Assembly: GCA_048887225.1 (NCBI GenBank)
Contig: JBHLJY010000012.1
Coordinates: 1-64,000, forward strand
Origin: Candidatus Hodarchaeota archaeon
GTDB taxonomy: Archaea > Asgardarchaeota > Lokiarchaeia > Sigyniarchaeales > SOKP01
Direction of reading: 5' to 3'
Length of the DNA stretch: 64,000 nt
The notes under the pieces: model-generated
Seen by the model: only the letters and a program-made list of their open reading frames with translations
The model's database searches: none
Told to the model about the DNA's origin: nothing
Part shown: positions 29,034 through 48,626 of the stretch, one piece after another
How positions within the stretch are numbered: position 1 is the stretch's first letter
Layout: every line of letters starts with the position of its first letter
Position numbers and translations under genes: made by a program

Positions 29034-29377
29034 ATTAATTTATACCACCTCTCAGATATTTTTATAAATCTATTTAATTCTATGTGAATAGTCAAAAGAC
29101 TTGAATATAAAAAATTTGATAAGAAAAATTTTTGTCTTTTTGACAATCCTTCTTGTCATTCATCAATTTTTAGCAAAATAAGTTATCAGTAGGATTACTA
29201 ATTCTTAATTGAATTATAAATCAGGTTAAGAATGGTTATATTTATGCTATGAAAATTTTTTTTGTCAAAATTTTTGAAAGAAAATTAAAATATTTCTACA
29301 AAGAAAAGAATTTTATTTATTAAAACTTAAATTTTTTTCGATATAGTAATGAATACAATACATTTCGTATTATAAAT

Positions 29378-29575: not shown

Positions 29576-29651
29576 AAAAAAAATTAATTTATATAAATTC
29601 TTAAAATAAAAAAACCTGCAAAAAAAATCTTAAAAGGGGTATGATATATTG

Positions 29652-29813
29652 ATGGAATTAAAAGTAGATCTAAGGGTGTGTGAGAATTGTGGTGTAGCTT
29701 TGGAAGCAAGAGATTATTTCTATCGACATAAAACGCCAAATGCTCCAGGAGGATATATTTGTCATAGCTGTGGCTATTATTTGATTCGCTCTAAAAAAAT
29801 TCGAAACAAATAG
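29652..29813 (+). CDS. C4 zinc-finger microprotein (53 aa), not in ORF track
   Basis: MELKVDLRVCENCG-x22-CHSCGYYLIRSKKIRNK; GGGGT RBS; first gene of the hdrD-like operon. Confidence 0.75.
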   Translation: MELKVDLRVCENCGVALEARDYFYRHKTPNAPGGYICHSCGYYLIRSKKIRNK

Positions 29814-29833: not shown

Positions 29834-31069
29834 TTGGGGATCGGTGATTCAAATATTTATTTCTCACAAGAATCAATTAAAGACATAAAGTCTTATATAA
29901 ATTATTGTTATCACTGTTATCGATGTATTAATGTCTGTCCATTATCCCACTTAGGTGTTTTCTTTCCACAAAGGTTAATTGCAGATTTAACCTTCTCTTC
30001 AATGGAAGATGGTTTAACAAATAATAACATATGGGAATGCCTCACCTGTGGTCAGTGTTCAATTTATTGTCCAATGACATCTAATTCTTCGGGTGTGAGA
30101 ATACCTGAATTAATTTTAGAATTAAGAAAGAAATCACGAGAGAATAAAAAACAATCTGAAAAAATGTTGTATTGTGAAACGCACAACAATATATTTCCAT
30201 TGCTTACGAGATTAATGGCGGATAATCCGTTGAATCCGAACAAATTAGATTTTTTAAATGGGACAAAATTGAAGACGGCAGAAACAGGTCCAATAGCGTA
30301 TTTTGTTGGATGTTCACCATTATTACAAGATATTTTTTATAATTTTGATATAAAATATACTGATTCAGCCATTACAATAATCGCATTACTTAATGAAGCT
30401 AATTTTGTTCCAGTTGTTTTAAATGAAAAATGTTGTGGACATGATATATTGTGGGGTCTTGGAGATATTAAAAGGTTTAAAAAACTAGCTGAATATAACG
30501 TAAAACTCTACAGAGATGCAGGCATTAAAATAGTTATCATAAGCTGTGCCGAAGGATATAGAACATGGAAGTTCGATTATCCAAAAGTGATTGATAATTT
30601 TGATTTTGAAGTATTACATTTTTCAGAATTTTTATTAAGAGAGAAAATTCTTGAAAACAAGCGATTTCCCAAAGTACATAAAATTAAAGTTACTTACCAC
30701 GATTCTTGTCGACTTGGTCGCTTAAGTGATAAATTATATGATCCTCCACGGGAATTACTAAGACAAATTCCAAATGTTGAATTAATTGAGATGGAAAATA
30801 TTAGAGATAACGCTCAATGTTGTGGGGTTTCAGCTTTCCGAGGGTGCAATGAATTTACTCACTTTTTAATCCAAAAGCGTATCAACGAAGCAATTGAAAC
30901 GGGTGCAGATTATTTAATCGTTCCATGCTCAAAATGCCAAACACATTTCACTTGTTATATGAATGAACCCTCTATTAATAGAGAGAAGGGAGATTTGAGA
31001 GATAAAATAAGAATAATTGATTTAGCTAGTTTTATAGGGAGGATGTTATTTATTTTCCAAATGAATTAA
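29834..31069 (+). CDS. HdrD/GlpC-like Fe-S oxidoreductase (2 x 4Fe-4S + 2 CCG domains)
   Basis: CYHCYRCINVCP, WECLTCGQC, CCGH, YHDSC.LGR and CCG motifs. Confidence 0.88.
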   Translation: MGIGDSNIYFSQESIKDIKSYINYCYHCYRCINVCPLSHLGVFFPQRLIADLTFSSMEDGLTNNNIWECLTCGQCSIYCPMTSNSSGVRIPELILELRKKSRENKKQSEKMLYCETHNNIFPLLTRLMADNPLNPNKLDFLNGTKLKTAETGPIAYFVGCSPLLQDIFYNFDIKYTDSAITIIALLNEANFVPVVLNEKCCGHDILWGLGDIKRFKKLAEYNVKLYRDAGIKIVIISCAEGYRTWKFDYPKVIDNFDFEVLHFSEFLLREKILENKRFPKVHKIKVTYHDSCRLGRLSDKLYDPPRELLRQIPNVELIEMENIRDNAQCCGVSAFRGCNEFTHFLIQKRINEAIETGADYLIVPCSKCQTHFTCYMNEPSINREKGDLRDKIRIIDLASFIGRMLFIFQMN

Positions 31070-31090
31070 AAATTGCGATATAGGAGAAGA

Positions 31091-34000
31091 ATGCAAAAAT
31101 TACAATCAAGTGTTTTAGTCATAGGCGGTGGGATTGCGGGCATCCAAGCATCTTTAGATCTCACAAAACTAGGTTTTAAAGTATATTTAGTTGAAATAAA
31201 ACCTACCATTGGAGGAACAATGGCACAATTAGACAAAACTTTTCCAACTCTTGATTGTAGTTTATGTATTTTAGCCCCCAAAATGGTCGAGATATATAGA
31301 AATCAAAATATTGAGTTATTTACCAATTCCTATATTGAAAAAATTGAAGGAGCTGCGGGAGATTATCGAGTAACGATGATAAAAATGCCGAGATATGTAA
31401 AAGAAGATGTTTGCAATGGATGTGGAGATTGTGCAAATATTTGCCCTGTAAGAGGTATTCCAAGCAAATTTGATATAAATCTAAAAACCCGTGGAGCTAT
31501 ATTTATCCCTTTTCCATCTTCAGTACCGCCTACTTATATAATTGATGAAACAAAATGTTTACTAATAAATTATGGAATTTGTAATTTATGTGCGAGAGTT
31601 TGTACCACCAATGCTATAGATTTTTTTCAAAAGAAGGAAGAAATAGTTTTAAATGTTGGAGCTATTGTCATTGCTACCGGTTATATCCAAAATATGCCAG
31701 GGATATATGAGAATCTTGCTGGAGAATCACGAAATGTATTATCAAGTATGCAATTTGAACGTTTATTATCCGCAAATGGTCCAACAAATGGAAATATTAT
31801 AAGATTGGATAATTATGAACGTCCAAAGTCAATTGCTTTTTTACAATGTGTTGGCTCACGAGATTTTCATCATCCTGAATGTAAGAAATATTGTTCTTCG
31901 ATATGTTGTATGGCTTCTGCTAAACAGGCAATCATCGTTAAAGAACATAATCCAGAAATTGAATGTTATATATTTAGTACTGAAATCAGAGCTAAGGGGA
32001 AAAACTTTTATGAATTTATTGAAAGAAGTAAACATGAATATAATGTTATTTATATAAATGGTAAAGTTTCTCTTATTAAGAATTGTTCCGAAAATGGAAA
32101 ATTAAAACTGTTTTATGAGGATATTGATGAGGGGATTGTGAGGACCTCAAAAGTAGATATGGCGATATTAGCAAGTGCGTTATTTCCACCTAAATCTTAT
32201 TATGATCTTTTAAACCAGTTAAATGTAAGATATAATGAATTTGGTTTTATTAGAGATGATGATTTATATAGTCTCGAAAAGAAAAATATCTTTTTTATAG
32301 GTTATTCAAGAAATCCAAAAGATATTCCTTCCACTGTTGCTGAAGCCTCAGCGTGTGCTGCAAAAATTAGTGAAAGATTACACATTGTTAGATTTCAGAA
32401 TGTAATCGAGTCCAAATATCCCCCTGAAATCCCTGTAAATCCTCAAGATGACCCGCGGGTTGGAATACTAATTTGTCGTTGCGGATCCAATATTGGAGGA
32501 ATTGTAGATGTTAAGAGAGTAGTTGATTATGTTTCAAAACTTCCTTACGTTGTTTATGCTGATGAAAATATGTATTCTTGCAGTTCTGATTCCCAGAAAC
32601 TGATTAAAGATATGATTTTGAAACATAATCTTAATAGATTTATAGTAGCTTCATGTACTCCTCGTACACATGAAAATCTCTTTAGAAATACACTCCGAGA
32701 GGTCGGATTAAATCCATATTTATTTGAATTAGTAAATATAAGAGATCAAGATTCTTGGGTACATCAAAATGAACCTGAACAAGCGACTAAAAAAGCTTGT
32801 GATTTAATTAGAATGTATCTTGCGAAAGTAATTAATTTGAAACCATTACAAAAAATTAAAGTTGAAGTCGAAAAGTCAGTATTAATTATAGGAGGTGGAA
32901 TTGCAGGGATTTTTTCTGCTAAAAATTTGGCAAATCAAGGTTTTGAAGTATACCTAATTGAAAGGGAGTCAATTTTAGGAGGCAGAGCTCTAGATTTTAT
33001 AGATTTATATCGTTTACCTTATATTAAAAATGACGTAATGAATACCATTAATGAATTAAAAAAAAAATCAACTGTACATATCTTATTAAATTCTGAAATA
33101 AGAGAGATACGAGGATATGTCGGCAATTATAAAGTTATAGTAAAAAGCCATTCAAATGGAGTGAAAGAACATAAATTGAATATTGGTACAATAATAGTAT
33201 CTATAGGTACCAAGCAAAAAAGAGTTGAGAGATGGCATGATATATCAGAAAAAAATCCTATGCATGTCTTTACTCAATCAGATTTCATAAAAATTAATGA
33301 TGAAAATATCCCTAGTTTTAAAGATGCCACTATAATATTATGCGTAGATCAGAGAAAAAATGAATATAATAATGGAAATGACTCAAAGACCTATTGTTCT
33401 AATGTTTGTTGCAATATAGCATTAATGAACATCGAAAAATTGTTCCGATTGAATCCAAGAGCCCATATTCATGTTTTATATAGAGAATTGCAATTTTCAG
33501 ATTTACATGCCGAAAAAATTGGGCGTGATATAAGAAAGAAAGTTCTTTTTGAAAGATATAGTTCAATTGATAATATAAAAATTTCTAAGAATACGAATCG
33601 TTTCAAGATAAGATATTATAATGTTGGCGCTCAAACAGACATAGAATTTATTACTGATTTATTAATATTAGCAACACCGGCAATTCCAGAAAGGGGTACA
33701 GAAGAATTAGCAAAAATTTTAAAAGTTCCTACTACGAAAGATGGTTTTTTATTAGAGGCCCATGTAAAATTAAGACCAGTAGATTTCTCTACAGATGGTA
33801 TATTTTTATGTGGTGGAGCTCATTGGCCAAAATGGATTGACGAGAGTATTATTCAAGCATATGCAGCATCTGGAAGAGCAACAATGTTAATGGCAAATGG
33901 AGGGATAGACACTGAATGTGTAACTGCTTATATGAATGAAGAAAAGTGCTTAGGGTGCGGCAGATGTGCTGAAATTTGTCCTTACAAAGCAATCGAACTA

Positions 34001-34204
34001 ATTGATAAAACCAAACAAATGGGATTATACACAATTAAAATGAAAAAAGCCCAGATTAATAGTGCCATTTGTAAGGGTTGCGGGTTATGTGTGGCAGAAT
34101 GTTCGCTAGGGGCAATTGACCAAAACTTTTTTAGTAAATTGCAAATTAATAAGATGATTGAATTGTTGATTGGATTGGAAACAAAAGCAAAAGAATTTAA
34201 TTAA
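31091..34204 (+). CDS. hdrA: Large two-FAD-module HdrA-like protein
   Basis: Two GGGIAG motifs, LDKTFPTLDCSLC, CSSICC, internal ICRCG module, EAHVKLRPV; AGGAG RBS before ATG 31091. Confidence 0.9.
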   Translation: MQKLQSSVLVIGGGIAGIQASLDLTKLGFKVYLVEIKPTIGGTMAQLDKTFPTLDCSLCILAPKMVEIYRNQNIELFTNSYIEKIEGAAGDYRVTMIKMPRYVKEDVCNGCGDCANICPVRGIPSKFDINLKTRGAIFIPFPSSVPPTYIIDETKCLLINYGICNLCARVCTTNAIDFFQKKEEIVLNVGAIVIATGYIQNMPGIYENLAGESRNVLSSMQFERLLSANGPTNGNIIRLDNYERPKSIAFLQCVGSRDFHHPECKKYCSSICCMASAKQAIIVKEHNPEIECYIFSTEIRAKGKNFYEFIERSKHEYNVIYINGKVSLIKNCSENGKLKLFYEDIDEGIVRTSKVDMAILASALFPPKSYYDLLNQLNVRYNEFGFIRDDDLYSLEKKNIFFIGYSRNPKDIPSTVAEASACAAKISERLHIVRFQNVIESKYPPEIPVNPQDDPRVGILICRCGSNIGGIVDVKRVVDYVSKLPYVVYADENMYSCSSDSQKLIKDMILKHNLNRFIVASCTPRTHENLFRNTLREVGLNPYLFELVNIRDQDSWVHQNEPEQATKKACDLIRMYLAKVINLKPLQKIKVEVEKSVLIIGGGIAGIFSAKNLANQGFEVYLIERESILGGRALDFIDLYRLPYIKNDVMNTINELKKKSTVHILLNSEIREIRGYVGNYKVIVKSHSNGVKEHKLNIGTIIVSIGTKQKRVERWHDISEKNPMHVFTQSDFIKINDENIPSFKDATIILCVDQRKNEYNNGNDSKTYCSNVCCNIALMNIEKLFRLNPRAHIHVLYRELQFSDLHAEKIGRDIRKKVLFERYSSIDNIKISKNTNRFKIRYYNVGAQTDIEFITDLLILATPAIPERGTEELAKILKVPTTKDGFLLEAHVKLRPVDFSTDGIFLCGGAHWPKWIDESIIQAYAASGRATMLMANGGIDTECVTAYMNEEKCLGCGRCAEICPYKAIELIDKTKQMGLYTIKMKKAQINSAICKGCGLCVAECSLGAIDQNFFSKLQINKMIELLIGLETKAKEFN

Positions 34205-34210
34205 TAACGA

Positions 34211-34684
34211 GTGATTAATATGTCAAAATCCAGAACGAAAAAATATGAAGAATTTGAACCAAATATATTAGTTTTTTGTTGTAATTGGTGTAGCTATGCA
34301 GGAGCGGATCTAGCTGGGGTTTCGAGGTTCCAATACCCATCAACTATTCGTATTGTTAGAGTCATGTGTTCGGGCAGAGTTGAGCCTGCATTTATCTTAA
34401 GAGCTTTTTATAATGGAATTGATGGTGTTATAGTTACAGGATGCCATATAGGTGATTGTCATTATATTAAAGGTAATGAACATGCATATATTCGTTTGGA
34501 ACATTTACAAAATCTATTGAAAAAAATTGGAATTGAAGAGGAAAGATTTCTAATCCATCCTATTTCAGCCAGCGAAGGAAAGAAATTTTCTGAATTAATA
34601 AAAGAATTTACAGAAAAAGTCAAGAAAGAAGGGATTTTAAAAATTGCTAAAAAATTAGGGCTTTTAGAGTTTCAGTATAGTTAA
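34211..34684 (+). CDS. mvhD: MvhD [2Fe-2S] subunit
   Basis: CCNWCSYAGAD, RVMCSGR and GCHIGDCHY motifs. Confidence 0.93.
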   Translation: MINMSKSRTKKYEEFEPNILVFCCNWCSYAGADLAGVSRFQYPSTIRIVRVMCSGRVEPAFILRAFYNGIDGVIVTGCHIGDCHYIKGNEHAYIRLEHLQNLLKKIGIEEERFLIHPISASEGKKFSELIKEFTEKVKKEGILKIAKKLGLLEFQYS

Positions 34685-35116: not shown

Positions 35117-36598
35117 CTAACAGTTTTTTAGTATAGTTGGTTTACAATTATTCTTTTTTTCCATTGCGAGTTTTTCGATTAATAATTGACGTTTTCTTAC
35201 ATCTATTTTAGGATTTAATTTTACCAAACCTTTATCAATCGCTCTATGAAGAAGAAGCTCTCCTTTTTTGGTTCTAGTAATAACTGAAGACCATCCAGAA
35301 TCTGAACCAATCGCTCCTACAGAAATATCTGCAAATTCTGCTGTTAAATCAGAGCAATAATTACAAAAATTCGCAAAGTAAGATCGGCATTCTTTTAATG
35401 AAATAGATATAATTTCTCCATTAATTAGATTTAGAAATAACCTACCTTTTTTGATATCCATTTTAACGACATCATCAAGCTCTAAATTAAACTTATATTT
35501 AATTAAATTCATCAAATTCTCATAAGTGAATGTTTTCATACAGAATAGACCAATTTTATATTTGATGTTGTCGAACATCCCCAAATTTAATGGCAAATGT
35601 TCTGCTTTTGCAAGAGCTCTAATTTTACATGGAAGTGCAACTATAGCGATTTTCTTATACTTTTTTGTTTTATTAAGTACAGATAGAATCGGAGCATTTG
35701 AATAAATGCTACCTTGGGTTTTATCCAAATATAGCTTGTTCTTAATGATTGCAATCTTAGGTTTCCAAAATTTTCTCGAATGTTTAACAGTTATAACAGC
35801 GTCAACTAGTTTCTCATCTAATAAATAATAAAGTAATGAACTAATTATGCCTCCATCCTGCTTTTTTTCGTTAAATTCATCTATTAAAGTCTTTGCTGAA
35901 TATATCTTTTTATAGTATCCAAGGTTTTCCGTATAATTTAAAGAACTTTGAAAACTTTTTTTATAATTATATAATGGCTGATATGGAACTGAATGAGGAC
36001 AAACACTATAACATAAACCACATGTAATACATTCACTCTCATCTACATATACATAATTATCAGTTTGTTCAATAATATCAATTGGACAAATTGATAAACA
36101 TAGCCCACATCTGGTGCAAATACCACTATCATCAAATGTTAAAATCGATTTGAAATAATTTTCTTGAATTAGGTTTGCGTTGCGTTTGATCTGATATTTT
36201 TTTTCTAGTTTCTGTTCCAAAATCGAACTTCTCTCATCATTGTCCAATATAACCTCAGATTCAATGCTCTCATTAATTAATCCTTTATCTTTTAGATTTA
36301 AAATCTCATAAATCGTATTAATGGAGGGAAAATCAAAAATTTCAACAATTCCCTCCAATGATAATGGTTGTTTTCCTTTTAACTTCTGAATGATGTATTT
36401 TCGCTTTGCTGCTTCATCTAATATCGATTTTAAAATTAAATTGAGGGTTTTTTCATCAAATTTCCCGTGTTCTAAAATACGTTTCCTTGCTTTAAATAAA
36501 GATCTAAACTGAAAGTCATTTGAAGCCTTAAGGAAAGAAGTTTTCATCTTATCTGGTGGGATTCCTTTATAATTATAGAAATCACTTATTTTAATCAT
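35117..36598 (-). CDS. FrhB/FdhB-like F420-binding protein with ferredoxin and an N-terminal putative wHTH region
   Basis: QDGG, LPC, IGLFC, CNYCSDLTAEFADISVG..GS..GWS motifs; two Fe-S motifs. Confidence 0.85.
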   Translation of the reverse strand: MIKISDFYNYKGIPPDKMKTSFLKASNDFQFRSLFKARKRILEHGKFDEKTLNLILKSILDEAAKRKYIIQKLKGKQPLSLEGIVEIFDFPSINTIYEILNLKDKGLINESIESEVILDNDERSSILEQKLEKKYQIKRNANLIQENYFKSILTFDDSGICTRCGLCLSICPIDIIEQTDNYVYVDESECITCGLCYSVCPHSVPYQPLYNYKKSFQSSLNYTENLGYYKKIYSAKTLIDEFNEKKQDGGIISSLLYYLLDEKLVDAVITVKHSRKFWKPKIAIIKNKLYLDKTQGSIYSNAPILSVLNKTKKYKKIAIVALPCKIRALAKAEHLPLNLGMFDNIKYKIGLFCMKTFTYENLMNLIKYKFNLELDDVVKMDIKKGRLFLNLINGEIISISLKECRSYFANFCNYCSDLTAEFADISVGAIGSDSGWSSVITRTKKGELLLHRAIDKGLVKLNPKIDVRKRQLLIEKLAMEKKNNCKPTILKNC

Positions 36599-36817: not shown

Positions 36818-38254
36818 GTGTTAACAAAAGAAAATATGATAGAATATTTAGAATCTTATAATATAGGGTATGGGTTTCAGGATTTATGTGATTTAGTAAT
36901 TAACAAAAAAAATTGTATATTTTGTGGAACATGTGCCTCACTTTGTCCCCGTATTGGGATTATAAAAAATAAACCGACCCTTTTAGAAAGCGATCCAGAA
37001 TGTTCATTATGTTCAAGATACTGTGCGAGAACTTACTTCCCTGAAGAGGTGTTTGAAAGAGAGATTTTCAATAATCAAAATCATCGGGATTTTATCTTAG
37101 GTTATTATCAAAAAGCAATAATAGCAAAAAGTACTGATGAAAGCATATTAAAGGTTGCCCAGAATGGTGGAGTGATAACAACATTACTTATTTATGCTTT
37201 GAATAAGGGATTAATTGATGGAGTATTGCTTACTAATAGAGATGAAAATTGGTTACCCAAACCTTTTGTTGCGAGAACACCAGAAGAAATACTATCATGT
37301 TCAGGTTCAAAATATACTATAGCCCCTACCTTAATTTCATACAGTGATGCAATTCATGAATATGAACTTGAAAAACTTGCATTTGTAGGTATGCCTTGTC
37401 AAATTCTAGCAGCAAGAAAACTCCAATTATGTCCTCCATTATCAGATAAATTAGGTCAATTTAAAATAATTATTGGAATTTTTTGTTCAGTAAATTATAA
37501 ATATGATTTAATAGAAAAGATTTTTGTACAGGATTTAAACAAAAAATTGGAGAATGTTAGTAAATTTGATATTTCAGATGGAATATTGTCAGTTATTTCA
37601 AAAGATGGTAGTATAATAAAACTCTCAACTAAATATATTAAAGAATTCATTTGGCCCAGTTGTCGATATTGTAAAGATTTTACTTCCGAATATGCTGATA
37701 TCTCAGTTGGTAATGTAGGTGCTCCCTCTGGAGATTTTAATAGCCTTATTGTACGTTCTGATATAGGTAAATCTTTACTGGATAATGCCATCTCTGAAAA
37801 GAGAATTATAACAACTAATACAATTGATCTTGCAAAAATTAAAATGGAATCTTTAAGAAAGAAATCAGAAATAACTAAAGTTGATAAAAAGATTATTTCT
37901 GCCTTGAGATTTTTTAATATCCCTGATCTTGAAGCAAAAGTTTATGCCACGTTAATCTCTTTAGGATATACTAATATTGCTCTGCTTAGTGACGTAATGA
38001 AAATGGAGTATAAAAAAATCTACAAAGCTTTGGAAAAGTTAAAGCGACGTAAATGGATTGTTGAGTTTAATGGTGGCTACAGAACAATTAATCCAATTCA
38101 AGTTATGAAAAATGAAATAACTAAATTCAAAGCCAATTTAGAAAAAAAAATTAATAAATTCAAATCTGAGGTTTTAAAAGAGTTAGAGATCCTTTTTTTA
38201 CAAAACAATATTCAGCATATAAAATATAATGAATACAATGATTTTTTCTACTGA
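36818..38254 (+). CDS. FrhB-like protein fused to a C-terminal TrmB-type HTH
   Basis: AQNGG, GSKY, GMPCQ, GIFC and DFTSEYADISVG motifs; C-terminal L..F.I...EAKVY..L...G......LS.......KIY.ALEKL.RRKW. Confidence 0.85.
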   Translation: MLTKENMIEYLESYNIGYGFQDLCDLVINKKNCIFCGTCASLCPRIGIIKNKPTLLESDPECSLCSRYCARTYFPEEVFEREIFNNQNHRDFILGYYQKAIIAKSTDESILKVAQNGGVITTLLIYALNKGLIDGVLLTNRDENWLPKPFVARTPEEILSCSGSKYTIAPTLISYSDAIHEYELEKLAFVGMPCQILAARKLQLCPPLSDKLGQFKIIIGIFCSVNYKYDLIEKIFVQDLNKKLENVSKFDISDGILSVISKDGSIIKLSTKYIKEFIWPSCRYCKDFTSEYADISVGNVGAPSGDFNSLIVRSDIGKSLLDNAISEKRIITTNTIDLAKIKMESLRKKSEITKVDKKIISALRFFNIPDLEAKVYATLISLGYTNIALLSDVMKMEYKKIYKALEKLKRRKWIVEFNGGYRTINPIQVMKNEITKFKANLEKKINKFKSEVLKELEILFLQNNIQHIKYNEYNDFFY

Positions 38255-38371: not shown

Positions 38372-38791
38372 CTATTTAATTATATCTGTTATGAAACAAG
38401 TTTCTACAATATGTATACCTTCTATTTGGCTTATTTTCTCTTCAAGTAAAGGATTGAATTGCTCTAACGAGGGGATTTCAACCATTATAAATAGACCACA
38501 ATCTCCGCTTAAACGCCAAATATTATTTATCTCATCTATTTTTTTCAATTCTGTTAAAATCCTCTTAATATCCTTGAAGTTTGGCTCAATTTTTACTGTT
38601 GCCCTAGTTTTAGGTTTCGAATTAACCTCATAATCTATTGTAAATCTTATAATTATTCCATCTTCAATTAATTTTTTCACACGACGACGAACTGTAGCTT
38701 CTGTTTTCCCTATTTTGTGAGAAATTTCATTAAAGGAAATTCTACTATCTTGTTTTAATTCCTCAAGTATTTTAAGATCTATTATATCCAT
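38372..38791 (-). CDS. Lrp/AsnC family transcriptional regulator
   Basis: D.IDLKIL..L..DSR.S..EI....G..EATVRRRVKKL...GII and LSGD motifs. Confidence 0.93.
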   Translation of the reverse strand: MDIIDLKILEELKQDSRISFNEISHKIGKTEATVRRRVKKLIEDGIIIRFTIDYEVNSKPKTRATVKIEPNFKDIKRILTELKKIDEINNIWRLSGDCGLFIMVEIPSLEQFNPLLEEKISQIEGIHIVETCFITDIIK

Positions 38792-40339: not shown

Positions 40340-42391
40340 TTAGTTAATTATTTCACCTTTTCTTTTAATTTCATCAATAATTTCTTCCGATTTCTTTTTT
40401 AAGCTAATATGATCTATAGTGTCAGCATATTCGACGTCATAACTACAAATACCCTTAATTTCTTCTACTATTTGATTATCTCGATAATATATAAGATCGA
40501 TAGCTCTTGACGGACAGGATGTTACTCAAATCCCACAGCCCTTACATTTTAACTCGTCAACTATAGCTGCATTATCAGGACCTACTTTTATGGCTTGATA
40601 TTCACATAATTTTTCACACCTATGACAACCCATACATAGATATGAGTTAACTTCTACGATAATTAACTCCTGTATTATCGAGTCCTTCGAAAATAAAGTT
40701 GCTACCTTACTTGCTGCTGCTAATGCCGTCGATACAGAATATGGTATATTTTTTGGTCCAACCGCACATCCACATATATATATGCCAGTATTCTTTGTTT
40801 CTTGAGGTTTTAAACACCCATGTATTTCTGTTATAAATCCATTTGGATCTTTTCCTAATCCAAAGATCTCAACAATTTTATCTGTCGTTATTGATGGAAC
40901 TATTCCTGTGGATAAAATAACTAAATCCACGTCAAGATTAATCATATCACCAGTTAAAGTTGAAGATGCATGAATCTTTAATTGGTTTGTTTCTGGATCC
41001 TCCTTGATTTCTCCTACTTTTCCACGAATCATTAAAATACCTAGTTCTCTTGCTTTTCTATAGTATTCTTCATTTCCTTTATCAGGTGTTCTTATATCTA
41101 TATAGAAAATGATAATTTCCATTTCAGGGTATTCTTGCTTTAACAATTGAGCATTTTTAAGAGCAACACATCATCAAACAATTGAACAATACGGATTCCC
41201 TTTTAAAGATCTCGAACCTACACATTGTATCATCGCAACCTTTTTAGGTGCCTTTCCATCAGAAATTCGACATAATTTGCCTCCTGTTGGTCCAACAGGA
41301 CTTAACATTCTCTCCAATTCTATTTGTGTAATAACATTAGGATAAATTCCATAGTTATAGTCATTATTTTCATTAATTTGATATTCATCCCAGCCAATAG
41401 CTACGATTATTGCTCCAATATTAACATTAATGTATTCAGGTTTTTGATTGAAATCAATTGCATCAGCTACACAATTTTTCTGGCAACTTTTACAACCAAT
41501 ACATGCATCTTTATCGATAAGAGCAACTTTTGGGACAGCTTGAGGGAAGGGAACATAAATAGCGTTCCTTTTCCCTAAACCCCTATCAAATTCATTAGGG
41601 ATTTTTATCGGGCATTTTGTTGTACATAAACCACAGCCAGTACATTTTCTTTCTTTTACATAACGAGGATTTTTTCTAATTTTCACATTGTAATTTCCTG
41701 GAATCCCACTGAATTCAATAATTTCGCTATAAGTAAATAGATTTATATTTGGGTGTTTATAAGTATTAACCATTATTGGAGCAAGAACTCAAATCGCACA
41801 ATCGTCTGTAGGATAAATCCGATCTAACTGTGCCATTTTTCCTCCAATGGTAGGTTCTTTTTCAACTAAATAAACAATAATTCCTTGATTCGCTAGATCT
41901 AAGGCAGCATTCATACCAGCTATTCCAGCACCTATGACTAACGCTGCTTTTTTTACTGAAATTTTTTTACAAGGGATGATTTCTAAATTACGAGCTCGAT
42001 TTATACCTGCTTTTACTAATCTTTTTGCTTTTTCTGTCGCACTTTCTGGATCATCTGAATGAACAAATGAACACTGTTCTCGAAGATTAACCATTTGAAA
42101 ATAGTATGGACTTAATCCAGTTTCATCCAAAACACTCCTATATGTTTCTTCATGAATTTTTGGCGTACAAGCAGCAACAACTATTCTGTTTAAATCTAAT
42201 TGTAATATATCTTTTTTAATGATTTCCTGCCCTGGATCACTACATGTAAAATCATTACATCTAGAAATAATTACATTGGGTAATGTTATAACAAAATCCC
42301 TCACGATAATACAATCAATCGTTGCACCAATATTAACACCTCATCTACAAATATATACTCCAATTCGAATATTGGTCTGTTCTTCAGACAT
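40340..42391 (-). CDS. hdrA: Heterodisulfide reductase subunit A, selenoprotein with five in-frame UGA codons (683 aa)
   Basis: Single frame from ATG 42391 to TAA 40340. UGA at 42341, 41789, 41174, 41171 and 40526, each aligning with a conserved Cys of the paralogues. Confidence 0.9.
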
Positions 42392-42962
42392 TTACTCCAC
42401 CCTTGTAAAACATCACCGTTTTTTAAAATTTATAATAAATTATTAAAAAATTTGTACAATTGAGGTTTTTTGTAAAAAAAATGGTCAAATTTAAATTATC
42501 ATTATCTTGACTAATCAATTAATCTTATTGTAGTAAAACTTTAACAGATAACTCAATTAATTTACCCTGATTGTTATACTTAAGATATCTATGTTTTTAA
42601 ATCGTAATTTTTTCCCTAATTTCATCAATTTAATACCAATTAGATCTCAATATGACAGAAATATAAATTATCTGATAAGAAAAGTTTTAATTCGTTTGAT
42701 AAATTTATTTGTCAAATCTATTCAAAATTTCTATAGAGTAAAAAACCTAAATGATAGACCTCTCTTTTCACCATTCAGATATGAAAAAATTTATGTTCAA
42801 TATGGTACATAAATTGATCGAAACCATACATATGTTTATATAATATGACATCTATATTTATCTTGTGGATCATAAAGTTTGCTAAATTAGTCATTGAATT
42901 TTTATTTTTGATCATTTATTGATTTAATAATAAATTCAAAGGAAGAGAGAGGTAGATCAAGT

Positions 42963-45512
42963 TTGGATATTTATTCTATAATTTCTCATCCATTTAGGCG
43001 AAAAATTCTATTACTTTTAGAAATTGAAGGCTATATTCCTTATAGTGACTTAATGGAAAAATTAGGATTAGATACAACGGGGCAGCTTAATTTTCATCTG
43101 AAAAAATTAGGAACCCTCATCAATAAGGATAGAAAATCCTACTATCTTACTGAAGATGGAAAAAGAGTAATTAAAATAATGAATATAAATAAGCGTATTT
43201 TATTTGGAGAGAATATGGATGAATATTTAAATTCGAAAGGAAGCGAGATAACCCGTGTAGGAGTTATAATTTGTAATTGTAATACAGAAATTTCAAATGT
43301 TTTTAATATCATATCACTTCAGAATTATATCAATAAATTAAAGAATGTAGTATCTGTAAAGGTTTTTGAAAATTTATGTCAAGAGAAGAACTTTAAGAAG
43401 ATTACAGATTGGGTGAGGGAGAACTTCTTAAATAAAATAATTATTGCTGCGTGTTCCCCAAAAACACATCAGCATCTTTTTGAACGAATTTTTGATGATG
43501 TTATTGACCATTCAAATATAGAAATCGCTAATATAAGAGAGCAATGTGCTTGGGTGCATCAGTCTAACTCTGATCATATCGATACCGCTCTTACTTTAGA
43601 AAAAGCTCGACTACTAATTGAAGCGGCAATTGAACGAGTTACATTGCAAAAAATCGTAAAAGTTAAGAGAGTAGAAGTAGAAAAAAGTTGTGCCATTTTA
43701 GGAGGAGGGATTGCAGGAATGACTCTTGCTTTAAATTTAGCACGCGCAGGCATTAAAGTACATCTTATTGAAAAATCACCTACATTAGGAGGTAAAGTCG
43801 CTAGATGGCACCGAATATCAAATATCGGGGATTGTTCAATATGCTTTATCTCGGAATTAATAGGAGAATTAGTGAATGAAAAAAATATAAAAATACAAAC
43901 AAATACGGAATTTGTTGATGTATCAGGAGGAGTTGGAGATTTTTCTATAGAGTTGATTAAAAAACCTCGATATGTTGATGTGAAAAAATGTACTGGTTGT
44001 AAACAATGTATCGATGTTTGTAGTATAGAAAAACCTAATCAATATGAATATGGTTTAACAAATCGAAAAATCATCTATATTCCTTTTATTCATTCTTACC
44101 CATACGCTCCATTAATTGATGAAGCTGACCTTAAAAATTGTCTCAACTGTAGAATATGTGAAAGAGCATGCGTAAATAAAGCAATTGATCTGGATCAAAA
44201 ACCAAAAAGAGTAAAAATCAAGGTTGGTGCAAAAGTTATAGCAATTGGTTCTGATCTTTACTTTGATTTAGAAAAATATCATTATAATCCTCAGAATGAT
44301 ATTATAACAACACCTGAATTCGAGCGAATGCTTTCATCAGATGGTTTTACCGATGGCGAGATATTAAAGGTCTCTGATAAAATCCCTCCAAAAACTATTT
44401 CAATTATCCAATGTGTGGGACCTTCAGATAGCAAATGTGAATTTAATTATATCTTGGCGTTAAAATATTTAGAATCTATTAAACAGAAAATTCCTAATTG
44501 TATAGTTAATGTCTTTTATGATTTGAGTCAATTAAGAGAAAATAATAATTTTTTATTTAAATCTACAGATCCTAGATTTCACTATATAAATAAGCTTGAA
44601 ATTATTGATAGAAATAATCAAAAATTTGTTAAAGCAGATGCAGAGGAATTTCAGAGTGATTTAATAATTCTAAATATAACGATGGTACCAAATAAAGATT
44701 TAAAATCACTGCGAAAAACAATGGATTTTACATTGGATGACTATGGCTTTATGAGCGAAGATACATTAACATCTGGAATCTATGGAGTTGGTACGATTTT
44801 TGGCCAATTAAATTATAATTCTACGATATCAACTGCGAACAATGTAGCTTTAAAAATAATTTCATTATTATCGAAAGATTTTTTAATCGCGGAATTTAGT
44901 GGAATTGATATCAACGAAGAATTATGCGGTTTATGTGGATTATGTTTGAAAACATGTCCATATAATGCTCTAACTATCGAATCAGATGTTATTACTATTG
45001 ATAAATTTAAATGTAAAGGATGTGGCACTTGTGTAAGTGTTTGTCCTACAAATGCCATTGAAATGAATCTTGATACTTCTGAAAAAATTATTAAAACTAT
45101 AGAAGTTTTTTCAAAATTTAAAAAAAGACCAAAAATTATCGCTTTTTGTTGTCGTTCATGTGGTTATGCTGCTGCTGATGATGCGGGTTTAAAAAAAAAA
45201 TATTATATTCCAAATACATTTATCGTTCGAGTGCCATGTACCGGTCGTATTGATACAAATTTTATCATTAAATCTTTCGAAAATGGTTTTGATGGAGTAA
45301 TAATTATCGGTTGTAGAAAAAATTCTTGTAGATACATTGATGGAATACAAAAAGCAAAAAAAAAAGTTCAATTATTAAAGAATATACTAAGATCGGGGTA
45401 TAAAGAACGAATACTTCTTGAACATATGAATGCTGTTGAGGGGAATAAATTTGCTGAGATTGTTAATGAATTTTATGATAAAATAAAGGAGGAGATTAAA
45501 TTTGAAGCCTAG
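42963..45512 (+). CDS. ArsR-type wHTH - HdrA-like - MvhD fusion protein
   Basis: SHPFRRKIL...YSDLM..LG....GQLNFHLKKL...YYLTEDG, then ICNC, CSP, NIREQC, GGGIAG, ferredoxin motifs, then FCCRSCGY, RVPCTGR. Confidence 0.88.
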   Translation: MDIYSIISHPFRRKILLLLEIEGYIPYSDLMEKLGLDTTGQLNFHLKKLGTLINKDRKSYYLTEDGKRVIKIMNINKRILFGENMDEYLNSKGSEITRVGVIICNCNTEISNVFNIISLQNYINKLKNVVSVKVFENLCQEKNFKKITDWVRENFLNKIIIAACSPKTHQHLFERIFDDVIDHSNIEIANIREQCAWVHQSNSDHIDTALTLEKARLLIEAAIERVTLQKIVKVKRVEVEKSCAILGGGIAGMTLALNLARAGIKVHLIEKSPTLGGKVARWHRISNIGDCSICFISELIGELVNEKNIKIQTNTEFVDVSGGVGDFSIELIKKPRYVDVKKCTGCKQCIDVCSIEKPNQYEYGLTNRKIIYIPFIHSYPYAPLIDEADLKNCLNCRICERACVNKAIDLDQKPKRVKIKVGAKVIAIGSDLYFDLEKYHYNPQNDIITTPEFERMLSSDGFTDGEILKVSDKIPPKTISIIQCVGPSDSKCEFNYILALKYLESIKQKIPNCIVNVFYDLSQLRENNNFLFKSTDPRFHYINKLEIIDRNNQKFVKADAEEFQSDLIILNITMVPNKDLKSLRKTMDFTLDDYGFMSEDTLTSGIYGVGTIFGQLNYNSTISTANNVALKIISLLSKDFLIAEFSGIDINEELCGLCGLCLKTCPYNALTIESDVITIDKFKCKGCGTCVSVCPTNAIEMNLDTSEKIIKTIEVFSKFKKRPKIIAFCCRSCGYAAADDAGLKKKYYIPNTFIVRVPCTGRIDTNFIIKSFENGFDGVIIIGCRKNSCRYIDGIQKAKKKVQLLKNILRSGYKERILLEHMNAVEGNKFAEIVNEFYDKIKEEIKFEA

Positions 45513-46266
45513 ATTTCTAATTTCTTCTTTAACTAGTTGTAGTGGTTGTATTTCTTCATTAGTAACATTAGATATTTTCCCACAATTTCTGGAAAGAACA
45601 AAAGTTCAATATTTTAATTTTATCTCAGATACTAAAGAAATTAAAGAATGTGATATCGCATTAATCGAGGGATGTGTGAGTGAACCTCCACAGATTAGTC
45701 TCCTTAAAATTATTAGGAAAAATGCGAAAAAAATTTATAGTCTGGGTTCTTGTGCTGCGTTTGGAGGTATATTAAGTCTTTCAGAAAAAAAATCCGCAGA
45801 ACCAATATCCGAATATATTGAGATTGATGGTTTTTTCCCAGGGTGTCCACCTCCCTCTAAATTATTAGGTAATACTTTAATAAAATTAATTGAAAATATC
45901 GAGAGCCCTATAATTCCGCCTAAAAAGAATCTATGCGCAACCTGTCCATTGAGAGATATTAATAACTTTAATTTTGAAACAGAAATAACAAAAATATACC
46001 CTAATCCTAATGAGATTATTACGCCTGAAGAAAATTTAATTTGTTTTTTAAAAAATGGGATTTTGTGTTTAGGACCAATTACACGAGAAGGATGTGAAAA
46101 TATTTGTATTGCACATGGTATTCCATGTGAGGGCTGTATGGGTTCTGTTTCAAAAGATTTTTTTGCGGATATAATCAATTTTTTAAGCTTAATTAAAATT
46201 TCTGATAAATTAAAGAATTATAAGGGTATTTTTTATAGATTTTCAAAACCCAAATTTAAAGAGTGA
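45502..46266 (+). CDS. Group 3-like NiFe hydrogenase small subunit (MvhG-like)
   Basis: CSGC, EG, GSCAAFGG, PGCPP and CLGPITREGC...PCEGC motifs. Confidence 0.88.
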   Translation: MKPRFLISSLTSCSGCISSLVTLDIFPQFLERTKVQYFNFISDTKEIKECDIALIEGCVSEPPQISLLKIIRKNAKKIYSLGSCAAFGGILSLSEKKSAEPISEYIEIDGFFPGCPPPSKLLGNTLIKLIENIESPIIPPKKNLCATCPLRDINNFNFETEITKIYPNPNEIITPEENLICFLKNGILCLGPITREGCENICIAHGIPCEGCMGSVSKDFFADIINFLSLIKISDKLKNYKGIFYRFSKPKFKE

Positions 46267-47573
46267 AATGGTTGAAAAAAGTAATTGATATTTGTACGAG
46301 AGTTGAAGGTCATGGCAATGTAAACATTTTTCTCGAAAATCAAAACGAAGAAATTTCGGAAGTAAATTTTGAAATCTCTATATTTCGAGGATTTGAAAAT
46401 ATATTATTAAGAAAAGAATTATTAGACATTCCTAAAATAATATCACGCGTGTGTGGGTTATGTTATGCATCTCAATCAATTGCTAGTTGTAAAGCTATAG
46501 AAAATTTATATGATATAGAAGTTCCAGAGCAGTCTATTCTTTTAAGACGGCTATTATTAACTGGTGAATTAATAAAATCACATTCCATGCATTTCTTTTT
46601 TCATTCATTACCAGATTTATTAGAAATTTTTAATATTTTAGAGAATACACCATCGCCATATGAAATAATTAATTACGATCTCCATTTGACAACAAATTTC
46701 TATGAATTAATAAAAATCGGAAATGAAATCAATAAAATATTTGGTGGAAGGGCAGTTCATTGTATTACTCAAGTTCCAGGAGGAAATCTTTATTTCCCTT
46801 CCAGAAAAAATATTACTATTGCTCGGAAATATTTACAAAAAGCAATTTTTAGTTTGGAATGGATAATTGAAAAGTTTATTGAATTGTTTTCAGCACAAAC
46901 TCCTCCTATTGACTATGAACTTCCAAATTGTACGTTTTTTGGATTACATAGCCATGGTAAGTATGACAGATATTCTGGAATTTTAGGAATAAAGCAATTT
47001 AATCACAAAATCATTAATTTTTTAGATAAAAATTATTCAAAATATTTAGATAAAGATCCAGATCTACGAGGTATTAATTTTTTTATGGGAAAAAATATTT
47101 TAGTTGGACCTCTTGCTAGACAAAAAATAATTGAGGATTATGGAAAACCAGAAATTTCAACATACTTGAGTTATTTTGATAATTCGTGGCAATATAATAT
47201 TTTATTTTCAACCTTCATTAAATTATTGGAAATGTATATGGAGGCGAAACTAGGTTTAGAAATTTTACAAAATCCTATGTTAGATAATAAAATTTCCTTA
47301 CCTACGCTTAAATCGATAAAAAATTCAGATGGCATTGGGGTTGTAGAAGCCCCAAGAGGGACATTAATGCATCATTACACATTAAACAGAAATAACGAAA
47401 TTGATGAAATAAAGCTTTACATTGCTACTGAAATCAACTTACCGCTTATAAATATAATGATTACTGATTACGCAAGGAAATTATATGAAAAACATGATAT
47501 TAATTTAGTAAAGGAAAAAATCCAGAAGATAATTAGAGCTTTTGATCCATGTATTTCATGTGCAACACATTAA
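46263..47573 (+). CDS. Group 3-like NiFe hydrogenase large subunit, no C-terminal extension
   Basis: RVEGHG, RVCGLC, EAPRG and DPCISCATH followed directly by stop. Confidence 0.92.
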   Translation: MKWLKKVIDICTRVEGHGNVNIFLENQNEEISEVNFEISIFRGFENILLRKELLDIPKIISRVCGLCYASQSIASCKAIENLYDIEVPEQSILLRRLLLTGELIKSHSMHFFFHSLPDLLEIFNILENTPSPYEIINYDLHLTTNFYELIKIGNEINKIFGGRAVHCITQVPGGNLYFPSRKNITIARKYLQKAIFSLEWIIEKFIELFSAQTPPIDYELPNCTFFGLHSHGKYDRYSGILGIKQFNHKIINFLDKNYSKYLDKDPDLRGINFFMGKNILVGPLARQKIIEDYGKPEISTYLSYFDNSWQYNILFSTFIKLLEMYMEAKLGLEILQNPMLDNKISLPTLKSIKNSDGIGVVEAPRGTLMHHYTLNRNNEIDEIKLYIATEINLPLINIMITDYARKLYEKHDINLVKEKIQKIIRAFDPCISCATH

Positions 47574-47603: not shown

Positions 47604-48626
47604 ATGATTGATTTTTTTACTAAGAATGAAACAAAAGACGACAAACTCGAAGACATCTGTGAAGTATATCTTCTTTATTTTGATGAATCTAAAGGTCCAA
47701 TCCCAATTCTTATCTATCCTGATGAATCTATAAAAAATAATCCTGAAAAAATGCGATTAATTAATATACATCCAATTTGGTTTTTGGATATAAAAAAGCA
47801 TGAAAATTTTAATCGCATCGATTTAGAGTATGAAGGAAAAATGTTTTTTGCTAAAAAATTCTTTGTAAATTCGAAAAGAAAAAAGAAAAGAGCTGGATTA
47901 GGAACTACTACTCCAGAAACAATTATCTTAATTATTGCTCTTTCTAATGATATTGACTTATTTGGAAATTTGCTTCTAAATAAAATTACTGAGGCTATTA
48001 TTACAAATTTTGGTAGTAATTTATATCAGGTGATTGAATCGGAAATTGTTAAATATAATTTGGTGAAAACTCCAAAATTAAGAGAAATTGTTACTAAAGG
48101 AGATTACTTAAAGATGAGGCTTTCCAATTTAATAAAGAAAATTTGTAATGAATTCTTCCTATCTTTCATAGAACAGATTGATGCTACATCTATTAAATTG
48201 CAGAAAGCTTTATCGTATTTCATGTTAAAAGGGATTTTTTTAAACAAAAGATTATTAAATAGAGAAAAAAAACAGTTTTCAATCACAGAGCTTTTTGAAT
48301 CGACAAAAAATGATATTAACAAAATAGGACAGCAAACTTTATTTAAATTTATGAATTTCAAAATTATTCAAGATTCAAGCGAGATAGAGATTAAAGTAAA
48401 AAACATCTCCAAAAAATTTATAGAAAATTTGAGAACCAAAATCACGTACGTAAAAGAATTTTTTGAAGATGATCTTTTAAATGAAAAAATAGATTACTGG
48501 CATCCCGAAGAGGAAATTCTTATAATCTTTCCAATTATTCCTGGAATTAGTGATTACATATTTTATATTATTGGAAATGCCGATAGAAATATATTATTTT
48601 CAAAAAAAATTGAAATAAGAAGATGA
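47604..48626 (+). CDS. Uncharacterised protein with a longin/uDENN-like N-terminus
   Basis: VYLLYFDESKGPIPILIYP N-terminal motif; beta-rich C-domain. Confidence 0.6.
   Translation: MIDFFTKNETKDDKLEDICEVYLLYFDESKGPIPILIYPDESIKNNPEKMRLINIHPIWFLDIKKHENFNRIDLEYEGKMFFAKKFFVNSKRKKKRAGLGTTTPETIILIIALSNDIDLFGNLLLNKITEAIITNFGSNLYQVIESEIVKYNLVKTPKLREIVTKGDYLKMRLSNLIKKICNEFFLSFIEQIDATSIKLQKALSYFMLKGIFLNKRLLNREKKQFSITELFESTKNDINKIGQQTLFKFMNFKIIQDSSEIEIKVKNISKKFIENLRTKITYVKEFFEDDLLNEKIDYWHPEEEILIIFPIIPGISDYIFYIIGNADRNILFSKKIEIRR

Follow-up and report, generated by a model that had tools for sequence, protein, structure and literature searches.

A winged-helix HdrA-MvhD fusion linked to a [NiFe] hydrogenase as a candidate H2- or redox-responsive repressor in Asgard archaea

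In the solved Mvh-Hdr complexes of methanogens (MvhAGD-HdrABC; 5ODC, 8RVU), the high-potential electron exits the FAD via cluster HA4 to HdrBC, and HdrA's N- and C-terminal domains, MvhD and the hydrogenase together form a swinging arm (PMC12350162, PMC13580544). Here we describe a related three-gene cassette at positions 42,963 to 47,573 of a 64,000-nucleotide (nt) stretch of Candidatus Hodarchaeota archaeon DNA (assembly GCA_048887225.1, contig JBHLJY010000012.1), hereafter the window, which is AT-rich (~30% G+C). In this cassette, a winged helix, an HdrA-like body and MvhD are joined in one chain (the fusion), followed by the small and large subunits of a [NiFe] hydrogenase. The cassette shares with the methanogen complex the HdrA domains, FAD, two ferredoxin domains and Cys pair, as well as the MvhD adaptor to a group-3 [NiFe] hydrogenase and the three-cluster small subunit. 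It differs in its N-terminal winged helix, fused MvhD, lost thioredoxin-reductase-domain cluster and AHPKLRPV deletion, in having no hdrBC in the operon, and in a hydrogenase that belongs to a separate clade, is tail-less and has Gln in its L1 motif. We read the cassette as a self-repressing regulator that would answer to H2 or to redox state, and give this reading a probability of roughly 0.55.

Other described systems resemble parts of the cassette. Group 3c hydrogenases (Mvh/Vhu) likewise have Cys ligands in both L1 and L2, a small subunit with three clusters and an MvhD partner, whereas the cassette hydrogenase falls outside the canonical clade and below the VhuA score and has no protease-removed extension. 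HdrA2 of type Ia (Methanosarcina HdrA2B2C2; PMC12054007) also carries a C-terminal MvhD, and the HdrA2 model NF040770 of NCBIfam is the best model for the fusion (residues 98–843). At 575 bits, however, the fusion stays below the cut-off of that model (1100); it also has a winged helix, is accompanied by a hydrogenase instead of HdrB2C2, and has lost a cluster. The bacterial group 2b hydrogenases HoxBC/HupUV (HoxJ-HoxA; PMC5665086) share the absence of a C-terminal extension and the Gln in place of the L1 His. They act through the HoxJ/HupT kinase and a response regulator, whereas the output proposed for the cassette runs via a DNA-binding domain in the partner flavoprotein. Very low turnover and O2-insensitive Ni-C/Ni-SI states are further marks of group 2b.

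ArsR/SmtB repressors, which bind DNA as dimers and sequence-specifically, match the N-terminal domain of the fusion in silico by fold, by sequence relationship and by a palindrome at their own promoter. PutA is a trigger enzyme: this flavoenzyme includes a DNA-binding domain, through which it represses its operon depending on how its flavin is reduced or oxidised. The cassette resembles it in combining flavoenzyme and DNA-binding domain in one chain and in a candidate operator at its own promoter; the folds differ throughout, and the input would be H2 via an attached hydrogenase. Seitz et al. (2019; PMC6478937, Fig. 5) presented the same three-gene cluster in Helarchaeota as a 'possible energy-transferring complex' and proposed membrane electron transfer for it; the winged helix and the operator are not described there. 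Our literature searches on helix-turn-helix (HTH)-HdrA fusions, DUF7347 and archaeal H2-sensing winged helices returned nothing relevant, and no paper describing a DNA-binding role of the cassette or the fusion was found. To our knowledge no H2-sensing route is known in archaea, and none was found in the literature searched.

The fusion protein and its conservation

The preliminary description of this locus had proposed a winged HTH (wHTH) fused to an HdrA scaffold and MvhD, followed by overlapping hydrogenase genes. Matches in Pfam and NCBIfam and the coordinates of the open reading frames (ORFs) bear out both points, the cassette consisting of three overlapping ORFs on the + strand (42963–45512, 45502–46266 and 46263–47573). 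Its features are as follows; confidence in the AlphaFold2 (AF2) models is given as the predicted local distance difference test (pLDDT), and structural similarity as the template modelling (TM) score.

42963..45512, + strand: wHTH-HdrA-MvhD fusion P0001, 849 amino acids (aa); TTG start at the same position as ortholog starts; AF2 pLDDT 84
42963..43193, + strand: ArsR-type winged helix, residues 1–77; recognition helix TGQLNFHLKKL; assigned from DUF7347 and Foldseek
43194..43244, + strand: flexible linker, residues 78–94; pLDDT <50 in the full-length model
43245..45107, + strand: HdrA-like body, from alignment to solved HdrA
45126..45491, + strand: MvhD domain, [2Fe-2S] adaptor; FlpD 126.8 bits; MvhD chains E ~1e-26; TM 0.85–0.90
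45502..46266, + strand: [NiFe]-hydrogenase small subunit P0002, 254 aa; Oxidored_q6; 12 conserved Cys, three clusters
46263..47573, + strand: [NiFe]-hydrogenase large subunit P0003, 436 aa; NiFeSe_Hases; tail-less, L1 His replaced by Gln

Residues 2–72 of P0001 matched the Pfam winged helix DUF7347 (42.6 bits; cut-off 27.6), and a profile search retrieved the ArsR-family entry 1y0u (E 2e-6) and PagR. The isolated domain was modelled with a pLDDT of 89 and the element order a1-a2-a3-aR-b1-b2(wing)-a5. All of its top 50 Foldseek neighbours were ArsR/SmtB or MarR-type regulators (TM 0.5–0.76), including BigR, NolR, CadC, PagR, HlyU, YodB and SmtB. The recognition helix, TGxLN[FY]HLKKL, was near-invariant across families, even at 37% overall identity. 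Since residues 78–94 are disordered in the full-length model, the winged helix appears to hang on a flexible tether. Both fold and sequence relationship support its assignment to the DNA-binding ArsR/MarR type.

The HdrA-like body (residues 95–715) aligned to solved HdrA (8rvu, 5odc) with an E value of ~1e-108, and the P0001 model matched HdrA with a TM of 0.72–0.83. The MvhD domain was recognised by Pfam as FlpD/MvhD over residues 725–843. The body retains its Fe-S domain at the N-terminus, an FAD site reading GGGIAG, the Cys pair DCSIC and the two ferredoxin domains, with invariant Cys motifs. Residues K409 and E356, which have been tied to flavin-based bifurcation in HdrA (PMC12054007), also appear to be retained (ILALK, PEFERM). 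The cluster motif of the thioredoxin-reductase domain (QCVGSR...YCSxxCC) is gone, YCSRVCC being replaced by EFNY with one Cys left; at this position P0001 reads QCVGPSDSKCEFNY. AHPKLRPV has been removed by an 8-residue deletion. The loss of these two motifs, with FAD and ferredoxin motifs kept, had been noted in the preliminary description and is confirmed by the alignment to 8rvu and 5odc. The AHPKLRPV deletion is common to all fused forms, and the YCSxxCC motif was lost in f1 (the family to which this genome belongs), f3 and f21 and kept in f9, f14 and f18. As the lost cluster is the sole one in the thioredoxin-reductase domain, by elimination it would be HA4, the exit toward HdrBC, and its loss would cut the path to HdrBC. 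Neither hdrB nor hdrC was found in the cassette operon in any of 20 loci, and there was no histidine kinase within the cassette in the window or in the fetched loci (L-numbers below).

The fusion occurred in more than 120 sequence clusters at 66–78% identity, nearly all of ~849 aa and with DUF7347, from metagenome-assembled genomes of Lokiarchaeota/Promethearchaeota. When residues 1–240 of P0001 were searched against 301 Asgard genomes, matches starting at residue 1–2 were found in 71 genomes from 7 families. These included 51 of the 69 genomes of f1, together with members of f3, f4, f21, f18, f14 and f9; the remaining matches started near residue 90 and represent plain HdrA. Among 1.84 billion cluster representatives there were only ~six full-length fusion clusters, one of them from Bathyarchaeia. 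The gene order fusion-small-large subunit was kept in 19/19 fetched loci reaching all three genes (the twentieth, L046, ends at a contig edge). The Bathyarchaeia cassette (L089:6001-10443) has this order too, beside NuoE/F/G-like and Oxidored_q6 genes, with the recognition helix TGKFNYHLSKI and a large subunit that has the L1 His and a 7-residue tail. Genome G210 has one Vhu-type large subunit and lacks the fusion. This distribution supports an old and conserved fusion: conservation across archaea, to which the preliminary description had tied its proposal, extends over the 71 Asgard genomes and Bathyarchaeia.

A palindrome at the cassette promoters

Upstream regions of 50 loci were compared, and 34 non-redundant regions were used to count palindromes. 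The top enriched hexamer, TGACAA/TTGTCA, was present in 26/39 proximal regions versus 6/39 control regions. An 18-bp palindrome, TGAYAA-N6-TTRTCA, occurred exactly in 17/34 upstream regions (shuffle mean 0.02, maximum 1) and with at most one mismatch in 25/34 (shuffle mean 0.48). It was present upstream of the fusion in five families (f1, f3, f21, f14 and f9), and it is new relative to the literature searched. Proximal palindromes usually lay 2–4 nt downstream of a TATA-like box. In a distal module, ~100–150 nt further upstream, a TATA-like box was followed by the half-site TTGAYAAGAA and a full palindrome, in that order. If the boxes are correctly assigned, the site would lie between TATA box and transcript start, the usual position of an archaeal repressor. 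In the window we found the following elements.

42697..42714, unstranded: candidate distal operator TGATAAatttatTTGTCA, exact palindrome
42673..42690, unstranded: degenerate site/half-site TGATAAG..., directly behind a TATA-like box at 42662–42669; recurrent distal module
42835..42863, + strand: putative proximal promoter, TATA-like TTTATATAA at 42835–42843, then TGACATctatatTTATCT at 42846–42863 with 2 mismatches

Exact orthologous sites stood at the proximal position in L007, L011, L013, L019, L047 and L048.

Genome-wide counts used a stricter pattern with at least one GTC half, since the double half TGATAA/TTATCA is too AT-rich to be specific; this degenerate form had 4 further matches in G000, the genome holding the window, at least 3 of them inside ORFs. 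The strict pattern occurred at two sites only in the 3.27 Mb of G000, both at hdr promoters. G047 and G276 each had a single site genome-wide, located ~100 nt upstream of the fusion gene; in G144, 2/3 sites lay there. In the 24 family genomes for which gene coordinates were known, 24/68 sites were no more than 2 kb upstream of the fusion gene, and several more lay 5–11 kb upstream on the fusion contig, in agreement with the position of the second operon described below. Genomes without the fusion had no site (G210 and G038, the latter congeneric with G047) or sites only inside genes, and mean strand-hits per genome were 3.0 with the fusion versus 1.2 without. The putative operator at cassette promoters is conserved and specific at the genome-wide scale, and its binder is a prediction: we consider it likely that the winged helix of P0001 binds this palindrome. 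We infer DNA binding by the winged helix and repression from these data, as we do redox control and low turnover from those considered below. In L046 (f18), TTGTCA-N19-TGACAA stands in place of the N6 palindrome; the f18 proteins, like the Bathyarchaeia one, also have a different recognition helix.

The hydrogenase and neighbouring genes

Sensory hydrogenases have no C-terminal extension, and their characteristic Gln lies four residues past the second L1 Cys. P0003 terminates at the His of DPCISCATH, where MvhA (5odc_F) and the A. mobile enzyme (7t2r_D) have 25 and ~25 extra C-terminal residues, respectively. Its L1 motif is RVCGLCYASQ and its L2 motif DPCISC, with the L1/L2 Cys ligands present. 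All 120 orthologous clusters end at the same position and 118 of them have the L1 Gln, so that the missing tail and the YASQ after L1, both noticed in the preliminary description, are fixed in ~120 orthologs and are not a quirk of this genome. A Gln replacing the conserved L1 His is characteristic of H2-sensing regulatory hydrogenases (PMC5665086). All relay clusters and Ni-Fe ligands are intact, including the three clusters of the small subunit.

The best sequence matches of the cassette hydrogenase were group-3 enzymes and not the group-2 lineage, so the sensor traits appear convergent, tail loss and L1 Gln having seemingly arisen independently in a group-3 enzyme. Against the VhuA model (cut-off 800 bits), P0003 scored 140 bits and fusion-linked copies 95–200, compared with 326–447 for canonical Asgard copies. 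A tree of large subunits, built from Asgard sequences only and without named references for groups 3a, 3b and 3d, placed the fusion-linked proteins in one clade (support 91/89) apart from canonical Vhu/Mvh, with the branching order (f9,f14),(f18,(f21,(f3,f1))). The path length between the same two genomes was ~2.5x greater for fusion-linked than for Vhu proteins. By these measures the cassette hydrogenase is a separate, fast-evolving lineage. The L1 His was replaced by Gln in f3 and f1 and the 7–13 residue tail was lost in f1 only; His and tail were both kept in f9, f14 and f21, the last of which lacks the cluster motif. Mapped onto the tree order, the sensor-like traits are derived, having accumulated stepwise within the fusion family. 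The large subunits of f18 (L043:4959-6308, − strand; L045:6381-7739, + strand) read DPCISCSSV at L2, with the His replaced, and KICGFC at L1.

G000 holds two further large subunits, both of the ordinary Vhu kind with the L1 motif RICGICPIPH. One lies outside the window (G000:C12, ~74.3–74.5 kb) as VhuG-VhuA followed by the selenocysteine (Sec) protein Sec-VhuU (FDCULSCAAH and a 21-residue tail). The second VhuGA copy (G000:C35:3435-7573) is followed by hdrC and hdrB and has no vhuU. The maturation genes of the genome encode HypD, HypE, HypF and one HycI-like protease.

The second strict palindrome of G000 lies within the window, upstream of an operon that is probably a second target.

29141..29158, unstranded: perfect palindrome TGACAAtccttcTTGTCA upstream of the hdrD-like operon, within a TATA/half-site module of the same kind
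29250–29267, unstranded: 1-mismatch site, upstream of the hdrD-like operon
29834..34684, + strand: probable second target operon, encoding an HdrD-like protein with CCG domains, a 1043-aa HdrA with two flavin domains, and MvhD

Between the perfect palindrome and the hdrD-like gene, a 54-aa zinc-ribbon ORF (29649–29813, + strand; CxxC...CxxC) had a weak TFIIB-zinc-ribbon match, below cut-off.

Divergent from the cassette is an hdrA gene (40526–42304, − strand) whose one frame is interrupted by TGA only; read through, Sec falls where Cys is conserved (in DCAIU and CGIU, and as the tandem UU of CSIVUUC). The preliminary description had suggested that the cassette may control this Sec-hdrA. This was not specifically supported: near the start of Sec-hdrA there was no operator site with one mismatch or fewer, and the two operator modules are oriented toward the fusion gene. 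Further away, two genes encode FrhB-like proteins (36818–38254, + strand; 35117–36598, − strand), one with a C-terminal TrmB HTH (34.6 bits, cut-off 25.6) and the second with a long N-terminal extension. By its domain assignment the FrhB-TrmB protein is another redox module fused to a winged helix. An Lrp/AsnC gene (38372–38791) lies beside this pair. Downstream of the cassette, a 340-aa protein (47604–48626, + strand), starting 30 nt past the hydrogenase, had no Pfam or NCBIfam match; its homolog also lies 3' of the cassette in L053 and L055 of f1 and is absent from that position in distant families.

Regulator, enzyme or both

In the mechanism that we propose, the large and small hydrogenase subunits would dock via the fused MvhD onto the HdrA-like flavoprotein, giving a soluble complex whose HdrA-type dimer would present two winged helices to TGAYAA-N6-TTRTCA. 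Binding just downstream of the TATA-like boxes would repress the cassette operon itself and, in G000, the hdrD-like/hdrA/mvhD operon at 29.1 kb. Electrons from H2 would put the flavin/Fe-S body into a given redox and conformational state. The winged helix would be tethered to the N-terminal HdrA domain, a part of the swinging arm, and the state of the body would decide its hold on DNA. A trigger enzyme such as PutA works by the same logic, the proposed input here being H2. The most literal form of this mechanism, in which the hydrogenase is itself a transcription factor whose H2-reduced body moves the swinging arm so that the winged helices release or clamp the operator, is put forward tentatively.

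Several observations weigh against a dedicated regulator. In f9, f14 and f18 the cluster motif persists, and in f9, f14 and f21 so do the L1 His and a 7–13 residue tail; by this comparison the fusion can go together with a functioning enzyme. K409 and E356 appear to be kept, as is every relay cluster, which makes an expensive apparatus if sensing is all it does, and the L1 Gln seems dispensable for H2 sensing itself (PMC5665086). The proximal site of G000 carries 2 mismatches, and the N6 palindrome is absent in f18 and in the 371-nt upstream region of the Bathyarchaeia locus L089. Moreover, because the sites move together with the locus, finding them alongside the gene does not independently prove which protein binds them. 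As the cluster, the His and a short tail all persist in relatives that branch deeper, the ancestral form, like the complex of the deeper families, probably combined enzyme activity with regulation. In f1 the module is probably mainly a sensor, and a pure low-turnover sensor seems doubtful. The preliminary description had envisaged an Mvh-Hdr wire repurposed as a one-component H2 sensor. The DNA-binding-type domain, the conserved candidate operator, the loss of the exit cluster and the sensor hallmarks, next to two ordinary Vhu hydrogenases elsewhere in the genome, support it, whereas H2 sensing and DNA binding are what we infer, and the sensor traits turn out to be derived from what was probably an enzyme.

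The retained machinery could also mean that the complex is mainly catalytic, either as an H2:ferredoxin enzyme or as a confurcating H2 producer with another second partner, and that a redox-blind winged helix sets operon dosage. Intact relay clusters, FAD site, K409/E356 and Ni-Fe ligands agree with this, as do the deeper relatives, in which the cluster motif, or else the L1 His and a tail, persists (all three in f9 and f14), and an operator found mostly at the cassette's own promoter. Yet in f1 the exit cluster is lost and there is no hdrBC partner, the large subunit's sensor-type traits have become fixed across ~120 orthologs, a site is also found at the second hdr operon, and canonical Vhu/Hdr enzymes are available for bulk catalysis. 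On balance we regard this reading, an enzyme with simple autoregulation, as unlikely. It is more improbable still that a different transcription factor binds the palindrome and that the winged helix is a structural or protein-protein module. Winged helices can mediate protein contacts, and regulators are encoded nearby (the Lrp/AsnC protein and the FrhB-TrmB fusion). However, the cassette alone is common to the five palindrome families, no neighbouring gene, regulators included, being shared in the loci checked; the recognition helix is near-invariant; the structural and sequence neighbours of the domain are all DNA-binding repressors; and the congeneric genomes differ accordingly, G038 having neither fusion nor site and G047 one site, at the gene.

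A membrane-associated complex passing bifurcated electrons across the membrane, as proposed for Helarchaeota on the strength of predicted membrane motifs in all three proteins (Seitz et al. 2019, PMC6478937), we find hardly credible. No 19-residue window in the three proteins reached a Kyte-Doolittle value of 1.6, the most hydrophobic stretches being the FAD Rossmann motif and the proximal-cluster motif. The folds match soluble HdrA and MvhD, and the winged helix goes unmentioned in that study (PMC6478937). We rejected this reading on the hydropathy result, which shows no membrane helix.

The preferred reading, a self-repressing regulator answering to H2 or redox state, bears on syntrophic Asgard archaea, whose growth is decided by H2 partial pressure. 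The cassette is a concrete candidate for archaeal H2 sensing; its putative operator is defined to 18 bp, its predicted regulon is small, and it is directly testable. Metabolic reconstructions in which these genes pass for an ordinary MvhADG-HdrABC, or for a membrane complex, are also corrected. If the reading is true, a hydrogenase-coupled member would join the enzymes that double as regulators. In its most literal form, which we hold only tentatively, the archaeal lineage closest to eukaryotes would have a direct, kinase-free route from H2 to promoter, and this would govern the choice between electron-bifurcating complexes during syntrophy.

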